Below are positions 9,067-40,326 of a stretch of DNA of 64,000 nucleotides, piece after piece. Numbering within the stretch: position 1 is the stretch's first letter; every line of letters starts with the position of its first letter. Source of the stretch: Clostridiaceae bacterium (GTDB lineage Bacteria > Bacillota > Clostridia > Oscillospirales > QAMX01); NCBI GenBank assembly GCA_034926225.1, contig JAYFRF010000009.1, positions 3,134-67,133 of the forward strand, in the 5' to 3' direction. A program made the position numbers and the translations under genes. The notes beneath the pieces are model-generated. The model did not search any database. It was not told the DNA's origin and was given only the letters and a program-made list of their open reading frames with translations.

Positions 9067-9084
9067 AAGCTTATACCTCTTGTG

Positions 9085-9414
9085 TTACTGGTAAACTAAT
9101 AGAACGAATATTGGTAAAGAAGAATCCCCCGCTGAAACGCCAACTGTGTATAAATTAAAAGGGTGAAACACATGAGGCTGGGAGTGTATGGTGGGAACCG
9201 AGATGTATTCAGAAATACAAAAACGGTCTCCACCAGGCGCTTTTATAACTGATTTCTGAATTATGCGAAACACTTCTGTCGTCATCACTTCTAACAAGGG
9301 CTTTGATTGTTGGGCTGTATTCTCGGCAATGCCGTCCTTGCTGCTTTTTTCGATAGACTTACTCCTCGCTCTCAGATCCTTAATTTCTCTGACGATCACT
9401 ACAGGATACCTCAT
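9085..9414 (-). CDS. Hypothetical protein (weak call)
   Basis: A 109-aa ORF in the AT-rich patch with no convincing Shine-Dalgarno sequence and no recognisable motif. Confidence 0.3.
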   Translation of the reverse strand: MRYPVVIVREIKDLRARSKSIEKSSKDGIAENTAQQSKPLLEVMTTEVFRIIQKSVIKAPGGDRFCISEYISVPTIHSQPHVFHPFNLYTVGVSAGDSSLPIFVLLVYQ

Positions 9415-9762
9415 CGCAAATCGATCTTCTGATTAATGGGGAAATTTTGTTCGCCAATATTTGCGGTTTTTGCTTGACAGTGTCAGTTTGGGTATTGCTT
9501 TTTTTGTAACTATATAATACAATATTTTAATGATATGAACTGCTTATTCCTATCATATCAAATAAAAAGCAGACCGCATGTATCATGCCTGTTATTACTC
9601 ATTAGCACCTCTCCTTATCGCTACCGCACTGTAGGTTTTTCGGCGGTTTTTTCATTTTCCGCTTTGGTGTTGCTGGCAAGGTTTGTGTGGATGTAGAAAT
9701 CGTCCATCATCCAACAAAGATGGTTGAGTGTTACATTTGTTAAGCTGTAGGAGGAATCAGTC

Positions 9763-10014
9763 ATGAGTAAATGGAAAATTCACGAAGATGATACTTATGT
9801 ACAAGGATATTACCGACGAAGGCGTAATAGTGTAAAAAAAAACACAGGGAATGGCACAGGCAGTGTCGGTAGTTTGATTCTACTTTTTATTTTTTTTCCC
9901 TTTTTTTCATTAGGTTATATACCAGAATTAATAAAAAATAAAGCTTGGTTCTTGTTATTAATTATTGTGATTTATTTGGTATTTTATTGTAAATTTGTTA
10001 TTCGGCTTATATAA
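9763..10014 (+). CDS. Small predicted membrane protein (moron, opposite strand)
   Basis: A strong RBS (GTAGGAGGAATCAGTC-ATG) precedes the start. A basic N-terminus is followed by two hydrophobic stretches (LILLFIFFPFFSLGYI; WFLLLIIVIYLVFY). It is very AT-rich and followed by a terminator. Confidence 0.6.
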   Translation: MSKWKIHEDDTYVQGYYRRRRNSVKKNTGNGTGSVGSLILLFIFFPFFSLGYIPELIKNKAWFLLLIIVIYLVFYCKFVIRLI

Positions 10015-10023
10015 AATTTGCCT

Positions 10024-10058
10024 GAACGTAGCATATGAATATACGTTCTGTCTTTTAT
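10024..10058 (+). terminator. Rho-independent terminator after the small membrane-protein gene
   Basis: GAACGTA, an 11-nt loop, TACGTTC, followed by TGTCTTTTA. Confidence 0.5.
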
Positions 10059-10111
10059 CAAATTTCAGTTTCAACTTATCAAGTTGTATAGTCAGTAAAT
10101 ATCGTGGTCAT

Positions 10112-12787
10112 TTATATAAGCAATAAACCGCGTGTATCATACACACTTTCGCTCGTATCGTTTCCGCACCGTATCGCCCGGTCAAGCGCCATAATGGTAG
10201 CGACGGCACCGTCTATCTTCTCAGTGGATTTTTCCTTGTCTGCCTTAATGTTGCCCGCCGGGTCTGTGCGTATATAAATGTTGTCCATCATCCAGCGTAG
10301 TACCGGCTGACCGCCGTGGGCAAGCTTCTGTTCTAAGGTAAGCTTCATCAGCTCTTTTGTCGGTGGACTCATATCCTTGAAGCCCTGACCGAAGGGCACG
10401 ACGGAGAAGCCAAGGTTTTCGAGGTTCTGAGTCATCTGTACAGCACCCCAGCGGTCGAAAGCGATCTCTCGGATGTTATACTTCGTGCCGAGCTCCTCGA
10501 TAAAGGACTCGATGAAGCCGTAGTGGACGACGTTGCCTTCGGTGGTTTGTAGGAAACCCTGCCTCTTCCAAACATCATAGTTCACATGGTCACGCCGCAC
10601 ACGCAAATCGATGTTGTCCTTTGGTATCCAGAAATACGGAAGCACGATATACTTGTCATCCTCATTAACCGGTGGAAATACCAGGACGAAAGCAGTAATA
10701 TCGGTGGAGGACGAAAGGTCAAGTCCGCCGTAGCATACACGTCCCCGTAACACTTCCGGGTCAACCGGGAAAGCGCAGGCGTCCCATTTCTCCATCGGCA
10801 TCCAGCGTACGGCCTGTTTGACCCACTGGTTTAAGCGTAGTTGTCGAAAGCTGTTCTCCTCGGCGGGATTTTGCCGTGCCGACTCAAACGCCGCCTTGAC
10901 CTTATCCATACTCACCGTAATGCCGAGAGATGGGTTTGCTTTTTTCCACACCTTAGGATCAGTCCAGTCGTCCTCCGGCGCTGCGCCGTAAATAACCGGG
11001 TAGAAGGTTGAGTCGGTCTTGCGGCCGTCTATAATGTCCACCGCTTTCTGATGAACCTCCCAGCAGATGCTGTTCTGGTTATCTCCGGCGGTTGTAATAA
11101 GAAAATACAGCGGCTGCATTCTTGCGTCACCGCTGCCCTGGAGCATAACATCGTATAGTTTCCTGTTTGGCTGGGTATGAAGCTCATCAAATATAACACC
11201 GTGGGTGTTGAAACCATGCTTGTTCGCCACGTCCGCCGAAAGAGCCTTGTATTTGCTGCCGGTCGGAACATAGGTCATGGTTTTCAGGCTTGCCTGAATG
11301 CTCATTTTACTGAACAGATGAGGACAACGTTTGACCATATCCATCGCCACATCGAAAACGATACGCGCCTGGTCTTTATCCGCAGCACAGCCATAGACCT
11401 CGGCGCCGGGTTCAAAGTCCGCGCAGAGAAGATACAGCGCAACAGCCGCCGCGAGTTCGCTGTTATGTGTCGGCAAAAAAGAACGCCCCACCAGGTATTG
11501 ATGAGACGGGCTGTCAACCTGTATGCATTGCATTCCTCTGTTGGGTATAGGTTCGACGGCATCGATGTAGCGGAAATGACTCCGTGTGTAGGGATTCCTT
11601 ACGGCCGCACGTGATCGTTTGCGGTTCATACCTGACACGGGCATGTCTTCAAACGCAGTAAACTTCACATAGTACAGCGTCTCACCTGTCGGAACGCGGC
11701 CGCACTCTGTACTCGTCTTTGACCAGTCCCGCCTCTGCGTGGAGGGTGCGACGGTTATAGTATTTTTAATACCTAAACTCCACAGCAATTCACTGACACT
11801 TTCAGAGAGCGCTTTTTCTGTGGAGGTGTATATGCCTTGTCCTTTACGGGTACTGATACAGCCATCTGAATCCATTAACCCTTGCAGCAACCGCAACCGC
11901 TGCTGTCTCGAAGCCCTGATATATGGAAATGGAATCACTTTCTCGTGGAAGCTCTTTAACAGCACGGAACGCAGCGCCGGGATGTTGAAAACAATACTGT
12001 CGCCGGTGTTGTTCAAGGCGCTCAGCACCTCGTAATACGGTACTATGTTTTTTAGCACTCCGGCGACATCTTCGGTCTTTATTGTTACTTCAGGCCTTAC
12101 CGCATTCCCGTTACCAAGCCAGTAACCCATCAGATACGGTTCTATCGGCAAATCGGCATCGGGCACTTCAATGGCATCGGAAACGGCAATCCGAAATCGA
12201 ATCACCCCGTCATGCTTTGGCATACGGAACAATTCACCGGTTGTCATGGTGCAAGGCCTTCTCTTGCCGTGTGTATATTCACCCACCCACTGGTGGCGTT
12301 CTCCTGCGTCAATAACCTGTCCATCTTTAAAAATTATTCTGTATGCCTGTTCATCATAGTCTATCGCACTTTTTGCCACGACATGGCAGACGCGTCCCTT
12401 CTCATCAAATACCTGATCCCCAACCTGAATACTTCCCATTGTCGCAAACCCGGACGGAGTTGGAATGAGTGTGTCCAGCGCCAGTTGTTTGCCCATCTTC
12501 TTGGGGATCTCGATATATGCCGTATTGAACTGCCGGTATCCGTTCGGTTTTAGAATCCCGAATACATCCCGGATAATCTGTTCCTGCCAATCGATAAGCT
12601 CGAAAGGCTTACCGTCCCAAGTGCCTTTGGTATGGCAGCAGAAGTTTTCTATAAAGCACACAGCGTGGTCGGCGGCATCCTTGTCATAATGACTGCCTTC
12701 CGCCATAAAACGTGTGGGATGGTATTTATTAAGCTTTTTCAAGGATCCCGCCTCCTTCTGGACAAAATAATAGACCGCCATCAGCAA
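10112..12787 (-). CDS. terL: Terminase large subunit (Terminase_1-like) interrupted by an intein
   Basis: The extein sequence IEIPKKMGK/SELAAAVALYLL restores a Walker A context. The downstream nuclease half is typical. The probable true start is the TTG at 12742, after AGGAGG plus 8 nt. Confidence 0.9.
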   Translation of the reverse strand: MLMAVYYFVQKEAGSLKKLNKYHPTRFMAEGSHYDKDAADHAVCFIENFCCHTKGTWDGKPFELIDWQEQIIRDVFGILKPNGYRQFNTAYIEIPKKMGKQLALDTLIPTPSGFATMGSIQVGDQVFDEKGRVCHVVAKSAIDYDEQAYRIIFKDGQVIDAGERHQWVGEYTHGKRRPCTMTTGELFRMPKHDGVIRFRIAVSDAIEVPDADLPIEPYLMGYWLGNGNAVRPEVTIKTEDVAGVLKNIVPYYEVLSALNNTGDSIVFNIPALRSVLLKSFHEKVIPFPYIRASRQQRLRLLQGLMDSDGCISTRKGQGIYTSTEKALSESVSELLWSLGIKNTITVAPSTQRRDWSKTSTECGRVPTGETLYYVKFTAFEDMPVSGMNRKRSRAAVRNPYTRSHFRYIDAVEPIPNRGMQCIQVDSPSHQYLVGRSFLPTHNSELAAAVALYLLCADFEPGAEVYGCAADKDQARIVFDVAMDMVKRCPHLFSKMSIQASLKTMTYVPTGSKYKALSADVANKHGFNTHGVIFDELHTQPNRKLYDVMLQGSGDARMQPLYFLITTAGDNQNSICWEVHQKAVDIIDGRKTDSTFYPVIYGAAPEDDWTDPKVWKKANPSLGITVSMDKVKAAFESARQNPAEENSFRQLRLNQWVKQAVRWMPMEKWDACAFPVDPEVLRGRVCYGGLDLSSSTDITAFVLVFPPVNEDDKYIVLPYFWIPKDNIDLRVRRDHVNYDVWKRQGFLQTTEGNVVHYGFIESFIEELGTKYNIREIAFDRWGAVQMTQNLENLGFSVVPFGQGFKDMSPPTKELMKLTLEQKLAHGGQPVLRWMMDNIYIRTDPAGNIKADKEKSTEKIDGAVATIMALDRAIRCGNDTSESVYDTRGLLLI
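11462..12487 (-). mobile_element. Intein (342 aa) with LAGLIDADG-type endonuclease domain inserted in the TerL P-loop; class-3-like
   Basis: It covers residues 101-442 of the ORF. It starts QLALDTLIPT and ends FLPTHN, followed by a +1 Ser. Motifs are block B GERHQW, blocks C/E LMGYWLGNGNA and LLQGLMDSDGCIS, and block F MQCIQVD. Confidence 0.8.
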
Positions 12788-12857: not shown

Positions 12858-13109
12858 TTAGAAGTTTTCGCTAATGCTGGCGTTGTCGTCGTCGCACTTC
12901 CGACAAATGTCCTCGCCAAAGACCACGTTCAATCCGCTGCCGTTGTCCCATTTCACCATAACACTCGCCGTGTCATCCACCCCGATAACAGTGCCTTTGG
13001 TGCCGATGGGTGGTGCCTGCACATCGTTCATGCGGATAAGCTCTACGCGGCAACCGACCGGAAACTGGCGGCGGGTGCGCTCAACGATATCTTTACTCGG
13101 AAATCTCAT
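12858..13109 (-). CDS. DUF4314-like small protein
   Basis: An 83-aa ORF. FPVGCRVELIRMNDVQAPPIGTKGTVIGVDDTASVMVKWDNGSGLNVVFGED matches my recollection of the DUF4314 family seen in Clostridia mobile elements. Confidence 0.55.
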   Translation of the reverse strand: MRFPSKDIVERTRRQFPVGCRVELIRMNDVQAPPIGTKGTVIGVDDTASVMVKWDNGSGLNVVFGEDICRKCDDDNASISENF

Positions 13110-14100
13110 CGTTAGCCGCCTCCTCTCCGTTCAGTAAGGCTTTTACCGCTTCTATTACTGTGGGGCCGTCAGTGGCAGCGTCGAGGTCTTCTGCGTTGAA
13201 GCCCTTCTTGGCTCCCGAGCGAAACGCCGTGCTGCCGGTCAGGTTACGAAGGAGCTCCCGACGCGTTTCCTTGTACTCATCACCAATGAAGCCGAGTCGC
13301 AGGAGGAAGCAGCGGAAAGCGTACTTCTCGTTGTCTGTTTCCTTTTCCTTGGCAGTCACACGCTTCTGGCTCTTGGCTGCAGCAAGCATTTTTCCAACAA
13401 AGTGCGTGATGGCGCTAATGACTGCCGGCTCCGGAATGTGGTCGAACCAAGGGAAGCGAATAAGCTCATCGGTGAGCTCAATTTTCAAGCTATCCGCACC
13501 GAGCGCTTTTTTGATGAGCGTAGCTTTGCTGTCGACCAGCCGCTTGAGGTTGTCAATCGCGGTGTCGGTTAAAGAAGAGCGCGGCATCTCAATTACCAAT
13601 CCATTGCCATCCTCGAGTTCCGGTACATCGCTTGCCTGCATTCCGTTTTCACCCTGGAAGTTTTCGCGGCGGGTACAGCCAAGACCCAATTCCTCGCGGC
13701 CGTCCATCCTCAGGTCCTCAAAGGCGAGTGCTTCATCCAGTTGTCTTTGCATGGCTTCGGTAATCGGCGCGTCGGGATTGGCATACTGTCCGGGGTGGTG
13801 CTGGTCAATATCCGGGAACTCGTCAAGCGCACCCATACCGCCAAGTCCGCTCTCGTAGGTGTCGGCTTCGTCATACTCGCGAGTGTCGCCGTCTGCGTCA
13901 AAACCCGCGTGATGGAGTGAATCCTCCAAGTCCAGGTTGTCGGGACCCGTAAGCGTTCCGGTCTTGTCGATGTGGTAATCGCCGATCTCGTAGGCGAAGG
14001 TCGGGGCTCCAAGGTACTTGGCGGGGGAATCCAGTGCTGTGCTGATCGCGCCAACCAGTGATTTGCGTTCAGGTCCTGTTACGTTGTAGTTGATTTTCAT
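13093..14100 (-). CDS. Hypothetical protein with strongly acidic central region (often auto-annotated 'virulence-related protein' in Clostridia elements)
   Basis: A 335-aa ORF with a D/E-rich stretch DNLDLEDSLHHAGFDADGDTREYDEADTYES...DEFPDIDQ. No catalytic motif was recognised. Confidence 0.6.
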   Translation of the reverse strand: MKINYNVTGPERKSLVGAISTALDSPAKYLGAPTFAYEIGDYHIDKTGTLTGPDNLDLEDSLHHAGFDADGDTREYDEADTYESGLGGMGALDEFPDIDQHHPGQYANPDAPITEAMQRQLDEALAFEDLRMDGREELGLGCTRRENFQGENGMQASDVPELEDGNGLVIEMPRSSLTDTAIDNLKRLVDSKATLIKKALGADSLKIELTDELIRFPWFDHIPEPAVISAITHFVGKMLAAAKSQKRVTAKEKETDNEKYAFRCFLLRLGFIGDEYKETRRELLRNLTGSTAFRSGAKKGFNAEDLDAATDGPTVIEAVKALLNGEEAANDEISE

Positions 14101-14277
14101 TTGTCAAAACCGCCTTTCTTATTTCGGTACTACATTAATGCCTCAAAACCGCATATATAGCAACACTTATTTGCGATTTTCATGTAGAATACCGCACCGA
14201 TTATTCGGCGGTTTTTTGTGTATATAACACAATGCGGGAAAGAACAAAACAGGCATAGTTCAGACCTGAGAGTGAGT

Positions 14278-15516
14278 TTACTCATCTACAGTCACCTCCG
14301 TATAGGAGTAAATCACACCGTCGCGCTGTACGGAAACCTTGTCCGCCGAGCCGACCTGTTCGATGTACCGCTTGACAATAACGCCGCAGAACCGCTCATC
14401 GATTTCGGCTGTATAACAGATACGCCCGGACTGCTCACAGGCAATGAGCGTGGATCCGCTGCCGCCGAAGGGGTCGAGGACGATGGAGTTCGTCAGTGAT
14501 GAGTTCATTATGGGGTAAGCCAGAAGCGGTATCGGTTTCATCGTGGGGTGATCGCCGTTTTTCTTCGGCTTGTCGAACTCCCAGATGGTAGTTTCCTTCC
14601 TGCCGGTGTACCACTGATGCTTTCCGCTTTTCTTCCAGCCGTAGAGCACGGGCTCATGCTGCCACTGATACGGAGAGCGTCCGAGTACCAGAGACTGCTT
14701 TTTCCAGATACAGCAGCCGGAGAGATAGAACCCCGCGTCGGCAAAGGCACGGCGGAAATTCAACCCCTCGGTGTCTGCGTGGAATACATATATGGAGGCG
14801 TCGTCCGCCATGTAGCTTGCCATATTGGTAAAGGCGTCTAGGAGGAACTGATAGAACTTGTCGTTCGCCATATTGTCGTTCTTGATTTTTCCGGCGGAGC
14901 CTTCGTAATTAACGTTGTACGGAGGATCGGTCACTACTAGGTTGACGCGATGGTCGCCGATAAGAATATCATACGTTTCCTTTTTAGTGGAGTCGCCGCA
15001 GATAAGCCTGTGCCGTCCGAGCGTCCAGATATCACCGGTTTTTGAGAAGGTCGGCTTTTGCAGTTCAGCATCGACGTCGAAATCGTCATCCTTCACCTCG
15101 GTGTCCTTGCCGAACAAATCCGACAGGTCCTTTTCATCGAATCCTGTAAGGCCGAGGTCGAAGCCGAGACCCTCGAGTTCTTCCAACTCTATCTTCAATA
15201 GTTCCTCGTCCCATCCGGCATCGAGCGCCATACGGTTATCTGCGAGGATATACGCTTTCTTCTGCGCCTCGGTAAGATGGTCGACATATACACACGGTAC
15301 CTCGGTGATGCCTTCCTCCATAGCCGCCTGGATTCTGCCGTGTCCGGCGATGACACCGTAGCTGCGGTCGATGAGGACAGGGTTTACAAAGCCGAATTCC
15401 CGTAAAGAAGATCGGAGCTTTTTTATTTGCTCCGCCGAGTGTGTTCTCGCGTTATTCTGATAAGGCACCAGCTTTGCGATGGGCACGAGCCGCATCTCAG
15501 TCGTTGTCTTGCTCAT
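14278..15516 (-). CDS. ParB-like N-terminal domain fused to a DNA methyltransferase (N6-adenine/N4-cytosine, beta class)
   Basis: The N-terminus LVPYQNNARTHSAEQIKKLRSSLREFGFVNPVLID...GHGR is ParB/Srx-like. Motif IV is VVTDPPYN and motif I is LDPFGGSGSTLIACEQ. Confidence 0.9.
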   Translation of the reverse strand: MSKTTTEMRLVPIAKLVPYQNNARTHSAEQIKKLRSSLREFGFVNPVLIDRSYGVIAGHGRIQAAMEEGITEVPCVYVDHLTEAQKKAYILADNRMALDAGWDEELLKIELEELEGLGFDLGLTGFDEKDLSDLFGKDTEVKDDDFDVDAELQKPTFSKTGDIWTLGRHRLICGDSTKKETYDILIGDHRVNLVVTDPPYNVNYEGSAGKIKNDNMANDKFYQFLLDAFTNMASYMADDASIYVFHADTEGLNFRRAFADAGFYLSGCCIWKKQSLVLGRSPYQWQHEPVLYGWKKSGKHQWYTGRKETTIWEFDKPKKNGDHPTMKPIPLLAYPIMNSSLTNSIVLDPFGGSGSTLIACEQSGRICYTAEIDERFCGVIVKRYIEQVGSADKVSVQRDGVIYSYTEVTVDE

Positions 15517-16666
15517 GCTTTTTCACCGCCTCCCGGAGTTCCTGCGCACAGTGATTCCACTCCCATCTCTCGCAGCCGCCGAAGTGACCGTAGGTCGCGG
15601 TCGCGGAATAATCCGTGTCCTTCAGCTTGAGGAATTCGATAATGGCAGCCGGACGGAAGTTGAATGTATCAATAACAGCGTTTCTGATTGCCGTATCGGA
15701 ATACCTGCCTGTGCCGAAGGTATCGACCTGCACGGCGACGGGGTCAGCCTTGCTGATGGCATAGGAGACGGCGACCTGGCATTTATCCGCCAGACCGTTC
15801 TGCACGACAGACACGGCGACGCATCTCGCCATATAAGCTGCTGAGCGGTCGACCTTCGTGGGGTCTTTGCCGGAGAACGCTCCGCCGCCGTGCGCTCCCT
15901 CGCCACCGTAGGTGTCCACGATGATCTTTCTGCCAGTGAGCCCCGTATCTGCGGCGGGACCGCCTTTAACAAATCTGCCGGAGGGGTTGACGAGGATCTC
16001 CGTTTCCTCATCAAAAGGAAAGCCCTCGAACGCCGGCCACAGGACATTGGTGATAATTTCATTATGGAGAGCATCGAGGTCTTTGTCCTCGGAATGCTGA
16101 ACGGATACCACAATTGTCTTTACACGCTTGGGCTTTCGGTCTTCATACTGGACGGTCACCTGCGCTTTTCCGTCGGAGAAGATACCTTTGATGGTCCCGT
16201 CCGAGCGAACCTTGTCGAGCCGTTTACAGATCTGATGGGCAAGTTCCAGAGGCAGAGGAATAAGAGTTTTGGTTTCGTTGGTGGCGTAGCCGTAAACCGT
16301 ACCTTGATCCCCGGCGCCGATGGTGGAATACCAGGAGGTGTCTCCGTTTCTTGATTCAAGGGCTCTGGAAACGCCACCGTCGATGTCCTCCGATTGTTTA
16401 TGTATATATACATAAATGAGAAACCCCAGCGGATTGTATCCGGCTATCCGCAGGGCCTGTCTTGTAATAAATCGGATATCCACACGCTTTGAGCAGGTGA
16501 TCTCGCCCGCTACGATGATTTTGTGTCCCGTCGCCATGACCTCGCAGGCTACGCGGGAGGATTTGTCGAGCCGCATGCACTCGTCCAGAATGCTGTCGGC
16601 AATGAGGTCACACAGTTTATCCGGGTGACCGATGCATACGCTTTCACAGGTTTTATAGGATATCAT
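15497..16666 (-). CDS. metK: S-adenosylmethionine synthetase (phage-encoded MetK homolog)
   Basis: ESVCIGHPDKLCDLIADSILDE..., GAGDQG, and DTYGG...HGGGAFSGKDPTKVDRSAAY motifs. The start was refined to the ATG at 16666, directly after the terS stop (TGAtATG). Confidence 0.9.
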   Translation of the reverse strand: MISYKTCESVCIGHPDKLCDLIADSILDECMRLDKSSRVACEVMATGHKIIVAGEITCSKRVDIRFITRQALRIAGYNPLGFLIYVYIHKQSEDIDGGVSRALESRNGDTSWYSTIGAGDQGTVYGYATNETKTLIPLPLELAHQICKRLDKVRSDGTIKGIFSDGKAQVTVQYEDRKPKRVKTIVVSVQHSEDKDLDALHNEIITNVLWPAFEGFPFDEETEILVNPSGRFVKGGPAADTGLTGRKIIVDTYGGEGAHGGGAFSGKDPTKVDRSAAYMARCVAVSVVQNGLADKCQVAVSYAISKADPVAVQVDTFGTGRYSDTAIRNAVIDTFNFRPAAIIEFLKLKDTDYSATATYGHFGGCERWEWNHCAQELREAVKKHEQDND

Positions 16667-16667
16667 A

Positions 16668-17240
16668 TCAAAATCCCTTTCTCTGGTGCAGCAGTCTTTC
16701 CAAATCATCATTTGGGTTTGCGCCGCTGAAATCCACGGTACAGTTTTCCTTGACGATCTGCATGATGGCGTCCCACTGACGGGCTGCCTGATTCATATAG
16801 TTGATACCGATGTTTATAAACGGAGAAGTGATGGGCTTTCCGGTTGTCGGATGTTTTGAGAGGAAGCCAAGTTCATTGGTCATCTCCTCGCACTGAATCC
16901 ATCGCGCCACGCACATGGCATAGCGCTCTAACGTCTGGGGAGACACATAGGAGGCACAGCCGATATTGTTGAGCCACTGCCATGTTTCCTCGTATACCGC
17001 CTTCGCACGGAGCTCTGTGCCGTCGCGCTGTTTTGCCGAGAGGATGTCTTTCGGCTTCGGCATTGCCGTCCCCTCAACATCGGGAATGTCCAGAACGGTA
17101 AGTTTCCTGCCGCCCGGATTTCCGTTGGCCGCTTTCTCTGTCACGGCCTTTTTCTTGCGTCCGGCGCCGGGTCTTTTTCCGCCCTGTCCGCCGGTGTTAT
17201 TCGATTTTGTCGGCATTTTCTCACCGCCTTTCTTTATCAC
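16668..17240 (-). CDS. terS: Terminase small subunit (P27 family-like)
   Basis: A basic N-terminus is followed by ...AKAVYEETWQWLNNIG...LERYAMCVARWIQCEEM.... It lies adjacent to an HNH endonuclease. The alternative start is the ATG at 17216. Confidence 0.75.
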   Translation of the reverse strand: MIKKGGEKMPTKSNNTGGQGGKRPGAGRKKKAVTEKAANGNPGGRKLTVLDIPDVEGTAMPKPKDILSAKQRDGTELRAKAVYEETWQWLNNIGCASYVSPQTLERYAMCVARWIQCEEMTNELGFLSKHPTTGKPITSPFINIGINYMNQAARQWDAIMQIVKENCTVDFSGANPNDDLERLLHQRKGF

Positions 17241-40239: not shown

Positions 40240-40326
40240 TGGTGCCGGTGGCGGGGGTCGAACCCGCACGGTGTCGCCACCGCGGGATTTTGAGTCCCGT
40301 ACGTCTGCCAATTCCATCACACCGGC
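40240..40326 (-). tRNA. tRNA-Leu (anticodon CAA), class II with long variable arm, CCA encoded
   Basis: GCCGGTG...ACGGGA-CTCAAAA-TCCCG-CGGTGGCGACACCGTG-CGGGTTCGACCCCCG-CCACCGGC-A-CCA folds as a cloverleaf, with CAA at positions 34-36. Confidence 0.9.

Follow-up and report, generated by a model that had tools for sequence, protein, structure and literature searches.

A LAGLIDADG-bearing class 3 intein at the Walker A motif of a prophage terminase large subunit

Introduction

The terminase large subunit (TerL) is the ATPase and nuclease of a phage packaging machine. In a 64,000-nucleotide stretch of a Clostridiaceae bacterium contig (JAYFRF010000009.1, assembly GCA_034926225.1, positions 3,134 to 67,133; referred to here as the window), the TerL gene of a prophage is interrupted by a 342-amino acid (aa) insert that falls within the ATP-binding loop itself. 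The locus raises three questions: whether the insert is an intein, how an intein that begins with glutamine would splice, and whether its LAGLIDADG endonuclease, in which one catalytic acid is replaced by asparagine, still serves its mobility. The reading favored here is that the prophage TerL of this Clostridia-type host very probably carries a full-length, LAGLIDADG-bearing class 3 intein at GK^S, where the caret marks the point of insertion.

An in-frame insertion within the Walker A motif

The insert corresponds to residues 101–442 of the TerL open reading frame (ORF), in frame, and lies between the Lys and the Ser of Walker A. It reads QLALDTLIPTPSG...SFLPTHN and is preceded by IEIPKKMGK and followed by SELAAAVALYLL. 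Four annotated phage TerLs without an intein, from Erysipelothrix phage phi1605, Streptococcus phage Javan191, Gardnerella phage vB_Gva_AB1 and Ruminococcus phage NatCom_38182, are 75–84% identical to the window protein outside the insert and align to it with one clean gap, which is residues 101–442. Intein-less orthologues read EIPKK(M/Q)GK^SELAAAVA at the insertion site. For example, in one empty allele (L023) ATCGAGATACTTAAAAAGCAAGGAAAA runs directly into AGCGAACTCGCGGCGGCTGTCGCT. In the empty alleles, K100 is followed directly by S443. The boundaries are therefore exact and residue 1 is Gln, with no offset available that would place Cys, Ser or Thr at position 1.

A first-pass annotation, made from the sequence alone, had proposed an intein in TerL that starts with Gln and splits the Walker A motif between the Lys and Ser of GK^S. 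Alignment with intein-less TerL homologues bears this out: the insert is in frame, is absent from 61 orthologous alleles, and adopts a HINT fold in a structural model. The motifs quoted at that time (LALDTLI, GERHQW, MQCIQVD, and LPTHN followed by Ser) were all found again at their positions, as were the two LAGLIDADG motifs, LMGYWLGNG and LLQGLMDSDG, with Asn at the first catalytic position.

In a set of 121 close homologues (65–100% identical), K100 and S443 are invariant, and G99 is found in 120. The window copy of the intein departs from the consensus (at least 93%) at three positions, each a conservative change (L to I, L to M and I to V). Base composition was considered as a sign of foreign origin and set aside; third-position GC is 0.53 in the intein versus 0.61 in the exteins, a mild difference that is too small to be decisive and with which a separate origin is consistent.

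The host protein is a TerL of the terminase_1 type (PF03354 plus PF20441), with both an N-terminal ATPase bearing Walker A and a C-terminal nuclease. The TerL_ATPase domain is recognized in two stretches around the insert (Pfam, E 1e-15), of which residues 445–579 correspond to profile positions 37–173, and TerL_nuclease covers residues 591–871 (E 7e-50). The C-extein therefore comprises the rest of the ATPase domain and the nuclease domain, and its first residue, Ser+1, is the Walker A Ser and, by position, also the splice nucleophile. With the insert removed, the protein is 75–93% identical to phage TerLs. Public records name such proteins just “terminase TerL endonuclease subunit”.

As listed, the TerL ORF begins at TTG 12787, and the NCBI entry, which is 100% identical, begins at TTG 12742. 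The latter is probably the true start, giving an 876-aa precursor and a spliced TerL of 534 aa, because a strong ribosome-binding site (AAGGAGG) lies 8 nt upstream of it and the NCBI call is also 876 aa. While the 891-codon ORF of the first-pass annotation stands, its estimate of about 549 aa for spliced TerL is thus probably to be lowered to 534 aa, a length that agrees with the 521–548 aa of annotated intein-less relatives. TerL residue numbers based on the 891-codon ORF, such as those above, are probably 15 higher than those of the real protein.

A class 3 splicing signature

Class 3 inteins are defined by Trp at B:12, Cys at F:4, Thr at G:5, the lack of an N-terminal nucleophile, and an essential His at B:10 (PMC2807308, PMC3196547). 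When the insert was compared with all PDB chains by phmmer, its top matches were the class 3 DnaB inteins 6bs8 (E 6e-18), 6rix and 6riy (to 2e-16). These alignments run end to end, with residue 2 on residue 2 and PTHN on PTHN. On 6bs8, the window residues His65, Trp67, Cys321, Thr340, His341 and Asn342 fall on His65, Trp67, Cys118, Thr137, His138 and Asn139, respectively. The Trp-Cys-Thr (WCT) triad noticed earlier (W167, C421 and T440 in ORF numbering) accordingly occupies the columns of Trp67, Cys118 and Thr137 of Msm DnaBi1, and it is invariant in the 121 close homologues. So are H65, H341 and S+1, and N342 is present in 120 of the 121. Position 1 is Q in 105 of these proteins, E in 11 and L in five; Cys, Ser or Thr never occurs there.

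The signature extends well beyond the close relatives. A HMMER search of 1.84 billion cluster representatives matched the insert to 15,145 clusters (50% identity) at E<=1e-3, and to 2,417 at E<=1e-30. From the best 150 proteins of such clusters, 74 intein copies align over residues 2–342 and make up a distant set. His B:10 is found in all 74 of these, and the WCT triad and a terminal HN in 73 each. The +1 residue is S in 42, T in 28 and C in four (Ser or Thr in 70/74). A non-nucleophile occupies position 1 in 73/74, most often A (41) or P (16), followed by G (5), D (3), E (2), Q (2), H (2), N (1) and M (1), with a single S. By sequence, Gln1 is a minority yet unremarkable state in class 3.

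All of the sequence features that define class 3 are present in the window intein, so the qualifier “class-3-like” in the first-pass annotation is not needed at the sequence level. The intein may also belong to the monophyletic class 3 clade, as the nearest solved structures by sequence are class 3 and 73/74 of the nearest full-length relatives carry the signature.

An AlphaFold2 (AF2) model of the intein, computed from an alignment of 32 homologues, has a mean predicted local distance difference test (pLDDT) score of 94.4 and a predicted template modeling (pTM) score of 0.91. In a Foldseek comparison of the model with the PDB, PI-SceI ranked first (E 5e-18, query TM 0.77), followed by the Tli and Pho VMA inteins and PI-PfuI. 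Next came the class 3 DnaB mini-inteins over the HINT part (target TM 0.84–0.90), and then I-DmoI for the endonuclease part. On these matches, the element is a classic bifunctional intein, in which a LAGLIDADG domain with two motifs interrupts the HINT splicing domain. The features of the intein and its surroundings are listed in Table 1.

Table 1. Coordinates of the TerL precursor, its intein and neighboring features in the window.
Feature	Position	Strand	Extent or residues	Basis or remark
TerL precursor ORF	10112..12787	minus	891 codons from first possible start	frame uninterrupted; ORF list
N-extein	12488..12742	minus	ends in Walker A IEIPKKMGK; Lys-1 codon 12488-12490	alignment with intein-less orthologues
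Intein	11462..12487	minus	342 aa, Gln1-Asn342	translation, gap in empty alleles, PDB matches, AF2 model
HINT N-terminal half	12176..12487	minus	intein residues 1-104	alignment to 6bs8/6rix residues 2-81; beta-strand topology of model
Block A QLALDTLIPTPSG, block B GQVIDAGERHQWV	within 12176..12487	minus		
His65 (B:10)	12293-12295	minus		invariant in homologues
Trp67 (B:12)	12287-12289	minus		invariant in homologues
LAGLIDADG domain	11588..12175	minus	intein residues ~105-300	Pfam LAGLIDADG_3 (E 5.5e-9), Hom_end
Motif 1 LMGYWLGNG	12107-12133	minus	intein residues 119-127	Asn126 at 12110-12112
Motif 2 LLQGLMDSDG	11861-11890	minus	intein residues 200-209	Asp208 at 11864-11866
HINT C-terminal half	11462..11587	minus	intein residues 301-342	alignment to 6bs8 residues 105-139
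Cys321 (F:4), in block F GMQCIQVDSPSHQYLV	11525-11527	minus		
Block G SFLPTHN	Thr340 11468-11470; Asn342 11462-11464	minus	Thr340 (G:5), then His341, Asn342	
C-extein	10112..11461	minus	starts with Ser+1 (11459-11461)	stop codon in range; Pfam, orthologue alignment
Two small ORFs in TerL-portal gap	9085-9414; 9763-10014	minus; plus		no PHROG or solid Pfam match
Four consecutive genes	12858-16711		DUF4314 protein, “amidoligase” PHROG match, ParB-domain DNA methyltransferase, S-adenosylmethionine synthetase	
tRNA-Leu (CAA)	40240-40326	minus		sole tRNA gene of the window

A further cysteine, Cys34 (12386-12388), never varies among the 121 close homologues and is frequent across class 3 more broadly. 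In Msm DnaBi1, oxidative stress leads Cys48 to form a disulfide that traps the catalytic Cys (PMC6195587). A rule by which either Cys34 or Cys48 would serve as the redox partner of Cys321 (cf. C48–C118) was considered and dropped, as all four combinations of the two positions are common and show no co-variation.

Proposed splicing pathway and its consequence for packaging

The steps of the proposed pathway are taken by homology from the MP-Be DnaB, Dra Snf2 and Msm DnaBi1 inteins (PMC2807308, PMC3196547, PMC6195587). Gln1 would be unable to make the usual acyl shift; instead, Cys321 would attack the Lys-1 peptide bond with the help of His65 and Trp67, to yield a block F branched thioester intermediate. 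The N-extein would then be passed to the hydroxyl of Ser+1, and cyclization of Asn342 would free the intein. Finally, an O-to-N shift would remake the peptide bond, restoring the GKS of Walker A and an active, 534-aa TerL.

A precursor whose ATP-binding loop is interrupted in this way should not be competent for DNA packaging, and judging from the position of the insert, packaging would depend on splicing. The same dependence is argued for TerL inteins by Kelley et al. (PMC5050341), and a P-loop intein of RadA disrupts ATPase function (PMC5050341, PMC6195587). Packaging that waits on protein splicing would offer a possible post-translational control point, and such control has been shown for a related DnaB intein under oxidative stress (PMC6195587).

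As to mobility, the LAGLIDADG domain most likely would recognize the uninterrupted site that encodes GK^SELAAA in intein-less terminases of co-resident phages or prophages, and this recognition of the empty site would start the copying of the intein into intein-less alleles.

An endonuclease with asparagine in its first motif

The AF2 model places the two LAGLIDADG motifs in helices (residues 117–126 and 194–208), each followed by a strand, in keeping with the alpha-beta-beta-alpha-beta-beta-alpha fold of LAGLIDADG enzymes, and the structural matches of this part of the protein are PI-SceI, PI-PfuI and I-DmoI. An acidic residue closes motif 2 (Asp208), and motif 1 ends instead in Asn126; both residues are invariant in the 121 close homologues. 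The Asn is not peculiar to this lineage. At the motif 1 catalytic position, the distant set (n=74) has D in 61 copies, N in 12 and A in one, and the Asn copies come from at least eight distinct insertion contexts. Across all domain hits, 177 have D and 24 have N. In the group of the window intein, the Asn form is conserved in >120 sequence clusters, and it recurs in ~11–16% of the class 3 intein family, which is very large.

The two active sites of a LAGLIDADG enzyme are closely coupled and often share a metal ion; each receives its catalytic acid from one of the motifs, and each domain cuts one strand (PMC3017599). With one catalytic acid per motif, Asn126 should therefore weaken or abolish one active site.

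The strongest alternative to a mobile element starts from this substitution. It holds that class 3 splicing works and that the LAGLIDADG domain is catalytically dead, its fold being kept for structural reasons, such as correct folding of the splicing domain, or for DNA binding only; the element would be immobile, and would persist since nothing short of a precise deletion could give back a working TerL. In I-CreI and PI-SceI, an Asp-to-Asn change at this position abolishes activity. Along with the fixation of Asn in 121/121 close homologues and the shared metal ion of the coupled sites, this speaks for a dead enzyme. Nonetheless, such a reading is judged unlikely, on the strength of how the domain has evolved and how the element is distributed. 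The recurrence of Asn in 12/74 distant relatives, for instance, suggests a variant that is tolerated.

Selection was measured by pN/pS (the ratio of the proportions of nonsynonymous and synonymous differences) plus the minority of pairs with finite dS. The endonuclease yields a pN/pS of 0.32, as against 0.29–0.36 for the splicing halves and 0.16–0.22 for the exteins, which indicates constraint as strong as that on the splicing domain and argues against a dead endonuclease. Mean pairwise identity tells the same story, with 0.645 for the endonuclease and an equal 0.618 for the N-terminal splicing half, and whole intein length is steady across homologues at 330–346 aa. On these sequence statistics, the endonuclease domain is under purifying selection and displays no decay, and Asn126 is fixed among the close homologues rather than variable. 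The first-pass suggestion of a degenerate enzyme or a nickase is a conjecture.

Allele states and patchy occupancy

Allele states were taken from a scan of IMG/VR. At the TerL site, the scan returned 61 empty alleles, 14 complete full-length inteins (339–343 aa) plus partial ones, and two mini-inteins of 159 aa (L027, 1501-3615) and 169 aa (L078, 1501-3597). Another locus, L135 (2501-2938), has a 146-aa mini-intein from which the endonuclease is gone, and all three mini-inteins keep WCT, HN and Gln1. In L134 (2501-3175), the intein is 225 aa long; the endonuclease is partly deleted and the second LAGLIDADG motif scrambled. Because the domain is lost or scrambled in these four cases, the endonuclease is evidently dispensable for splicing. 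By the same token, the domain disappears where selection has evidently lapsed, which argues that the full-length Asn form is kept by selection rather than as a dead passenger. In one further locus (L019), the intein frame seems to be interrupted, and either a pseudogene or a sequencing error is possible.

In a neighbor-joining tree of the exteins, empty and occupied alleles are interleaved. The window TerL clades with three empty alleles that are 92–93% identical to it, and other sister pairs join a full allele to an empty one (L005 with L052, and L009 with L003). The mini-inteins pair with full-length ones. The window intein is no more than 76% identical to any other intein found. Identity between inteins is hardly related to identity between exteins, with r = -0.03 for comparisons to the query and 0.31 over random pairs, and this decoupling of intein and extein histories implies recent intein movement. 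Both the patchy occupancy, with the window intein inside a clade of empty alleles, and the decoupled histories count against an immobile element. Taken as sequence patterns, and in a sample chosen by best-hit tools, the mix of states and the patchy occupancy fit an ongoing homing cycle.

The allele is found in prophages of Firmicutes, including Acetobacterium, Ruminococcus, Allobaculum, Megasphaera, Pseudolactococcus and Acidaminobacter among others, and also in the Actinomycetota genera Gleimia, Mobiluncus and Arcanobacterium. The chromosome of Allobaculum mucilyticum (NZ_CP078089.1) has three intein-bearing TerL copies (L121, L123 and L126, at ~610 kb, 657 kb and 2.91 Mb), and this co-residence could give the intein an opportunity to home from one prophage to another. 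Of note is that the TerL of phage phi1605 (ASD51096.1, L001:3037-4602) is noted as “intein-containing” and yet is empty, with 521 aa and an intact KKMGK^SELAAA; the note was probably carried over from a homologue that does bear the intein.

How would an endonuclease with a single intact motif drive such a cycle? An Asn-type domain may cut one strand only, or may work more slowly. It is tentatively suggested, as a possibility that is itself far from probable, that the Asn-type LAGLIDADG is a natural strand-specific nicking enzyme, or some other single-active-site variant, that still drives homing. Recombination-dependent replication of the phage would then convert a nick into gene conversion. 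A route of this kind has already been put forward for HNH endonucleases of Bacillus phages that nick DNA. We know of no established natural LAGLIDADG nickase, and the conserved Asn-type endonuclease would provide a cheap, direct test case for the existence of such enzymes.

Points on the other side and weaker alternatives

Several points weigh against a functional, mobile class 3 intein in this TerL. Homology is the basis on which this protein is assigned splicing, a branched intermediate at block F, and endonuclease activity. With Asn rather than Asp or Glu at the first catalytic position, double-strand cleavage may be impaired, to go by the sequence. Synonymous sites are saturated (pS ~0.8), and dN/dS is only semi-quantitative. 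The loci in the extein tree were picked by a best-hit tool and make up a biased sample. Lastly, the host record is a metagenome-assembled genome, and its prophage may not be inducible.

The last of these points also lends some support to the idea of an inactive relic, in which the prophage is decaying, TerL is non-functional, and the precursor is left unspliced or unexpressed. There is a precedent in Arth_1007 of Arthrobacter, a class 3 look-alike that proved to be a pseudogene (PMC3196547). In the window, by contrast, the frame is open over all 891 codons, the adjoining capsid, protease and portal genes are intact, and the intein departs from its consensus in just the three conservative positions. 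It has, moreover, every catalytic residue, including the Cys F:4 and His B:10 that are both absent from Arth_1007 (PMC3196547). A relic is thus very improbable.

Least credible of all, and close to dismissal, is a reading with offset junctions and a class 1 start (Cys, Ser or Thr), or, in a variant that is very improbable from sequence alone, with a class 2-type direct attack by Ser+1 without Cys321: alignment with the empty alleles gave no support for an offset and rules it out by fixing K^Q...N^S with no sliding; positions -1, 1 and 2 are without C, S or T; class 2 inteins lack the WCT triad and are known only in KlbA (PMC3196547), whereas WCT is invariant here; and the nearest characterized relatives need the block F Cys, as seen with C320A/S in MP-Be DnaB (PMC2807308) and with C118A, which abolishes splicing in the P-loop class 3 intein 6bs8 (Msm DnaBi1; PMC6195587).

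Comparison with known inteins

By sequence, the closest solved structures to the LAGLIDADG-bearing class 3 intein of the window are the DnaB P-loop class 3 inteins of M. smegmatis (DnaBi1, 6bs8) and M. chimaera (DnaB1, 6rix/6riy). Shared with these are the motifs LALDT, HQW, C-[IV]-x-VD and PTHN, as well as a site after the GK of Walker A and before a Ser that acts as the +1 nucleophile (PMC6195587). Elsewhere, the DnaB insertion site is given as SVGK^A (PMC7664689). In contrast to the window intein, which has 342 aa with a LAGLIDADG domain, resides in a phage terminase and starts with Gln, the DnaB elements are mini-inteins of ~139–145 aa that lack an endonuclease, reside in a bacterial helicase and start with Ala. 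Block B position 7 is Gly in the window intein but Asp in DnaBi1, and the redox partner Cys48 of DnaBi1 is replaced in the window intein by Ala, with the invariant Cys34 present there.

A second group comprises the class 3 LAGLIDADG inteins of actinobacteriophages, found in TerL, a Cas4/RecB-like exonuclease and DnaB, which have the same architecture and a similar length (~330–345 aa). By tblastn, residues 2–342 of the window intein match inteins of phages Gaia, Nebkiss, Cjw1 and Eureka and of Gordonia phages over the full length, at 33–35% identity. Actinobacteriophage TerL inteins reside in the same host gene, a terminase_1-type TerL, although the host phages here infect Firmicutes or are gut prophages and are not phages of Actinobacteria. 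Inteins without an N-terminal nucleophile, mostly in ATPase P-loops, were described in phage terminase large subunits by Tori et al. in 2010 (PMC2807308). In the study of Kelley et al. 2016, TerL is the commonest intein host in mycobacteriophages; class 3 TerL inteins are reported there, and TerL intein splicing and endonuclease activity shown (PMC5050341). Class 3 TerL inteins of mycobacteriophages are named there at sites c, d and e, and site a (GK^T) is referred to as the “classic” P-loop site (PMC5050341). More recently, 287 class 3 inteins were counted in actinobacteriophages, nearly all of them in TerL and Cas4 (Gosselin et al. 2025, bioRxiv 10.1101/2025.01.02.630785).

The third comparison is structural. 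PI-SceI, PI-PfuI and the Tli and Pho VMA inteins follow the same plan, in which HINT is interrupted by a double-motif LAGLIDADG endonuclease, at ~14% sequence identity to the window intein. PI-SceI-type inteins are class 1, with Cys1, Asp at F:4 and both catalytic Asp residues, whereas the window intein has Gln1, Cys at F:4 and Asn in motif 1. The first motif of the latter, LMGYWLGNG, lines up by pattern with the PI-SceI sequence LLGLWIGDG.

The mechanism class is not new: accounts of class 3 inteins that occupy the P-loop of terminases go back to 2010. Particular to this element are its Firmicutes/gut-prophage lineage, its Gln1, its conserved Asn-type endonuclease, and its considerable distance from the actinophage inteins. 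None of the INPHARED phages carries this allele at >=60% identity, and a literature search returned no paper on a class 3 intein in a Clostridium terminase large subunit. An allele of this kind may already be catalogued, for example as the Clostridium thermocellum “TerA” intein of InBase.

Phage context

TerL forms part of a phage head-and-packaging module. Downstream of it lie the genes for the major capsid protein, the maturation protease and the portal, and upstream those for a ParB-methyltransferase, an S-adenosylmethionine synthetase and a helicase. The nearest annotated phages belong to the gut-phage order Ca. Heliusvirales, to which the prophage is related. TerL is the marker that defines this order, and inteins are unmentioned in the defining paper. 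Unrecognized inserts of 340 aa could disturb TerL length filters, profile hidden Markov model (HMM) scores and alignments in Heliusvirales taxonomy. For annotation, the window supplies a precisely bounded class 3 allele in the TerL of a very common Firmicutes/gut prophage group.

No small terminase was recognizable directly upstream of TerL. The S-adenosylmethionine synthetase encoded there is complete, with all three MetK Pfam domains, and its place beside a methyltransferase suggests that the phage supplies its own methyl donor.

On the other side of TerL, the gap between it and the portal gene (9067-10111) is AT-rich, with a GC content of 0.30–0.42 versus ~0.52 around it. Of the two small ORFs in this gap, the one on the plus strand appears to encode a membrane-embedded product. 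In relatives, the slot between TerL and portal holds cargo, for example an aminoglycoside nucleotidyltransferase in phi1605 and DinJ/Doc in Javan191. The tRNA-Leu gene is located outside the left, phage-like portion of the window, and it may point to an attachment site or boundary of the prophage.

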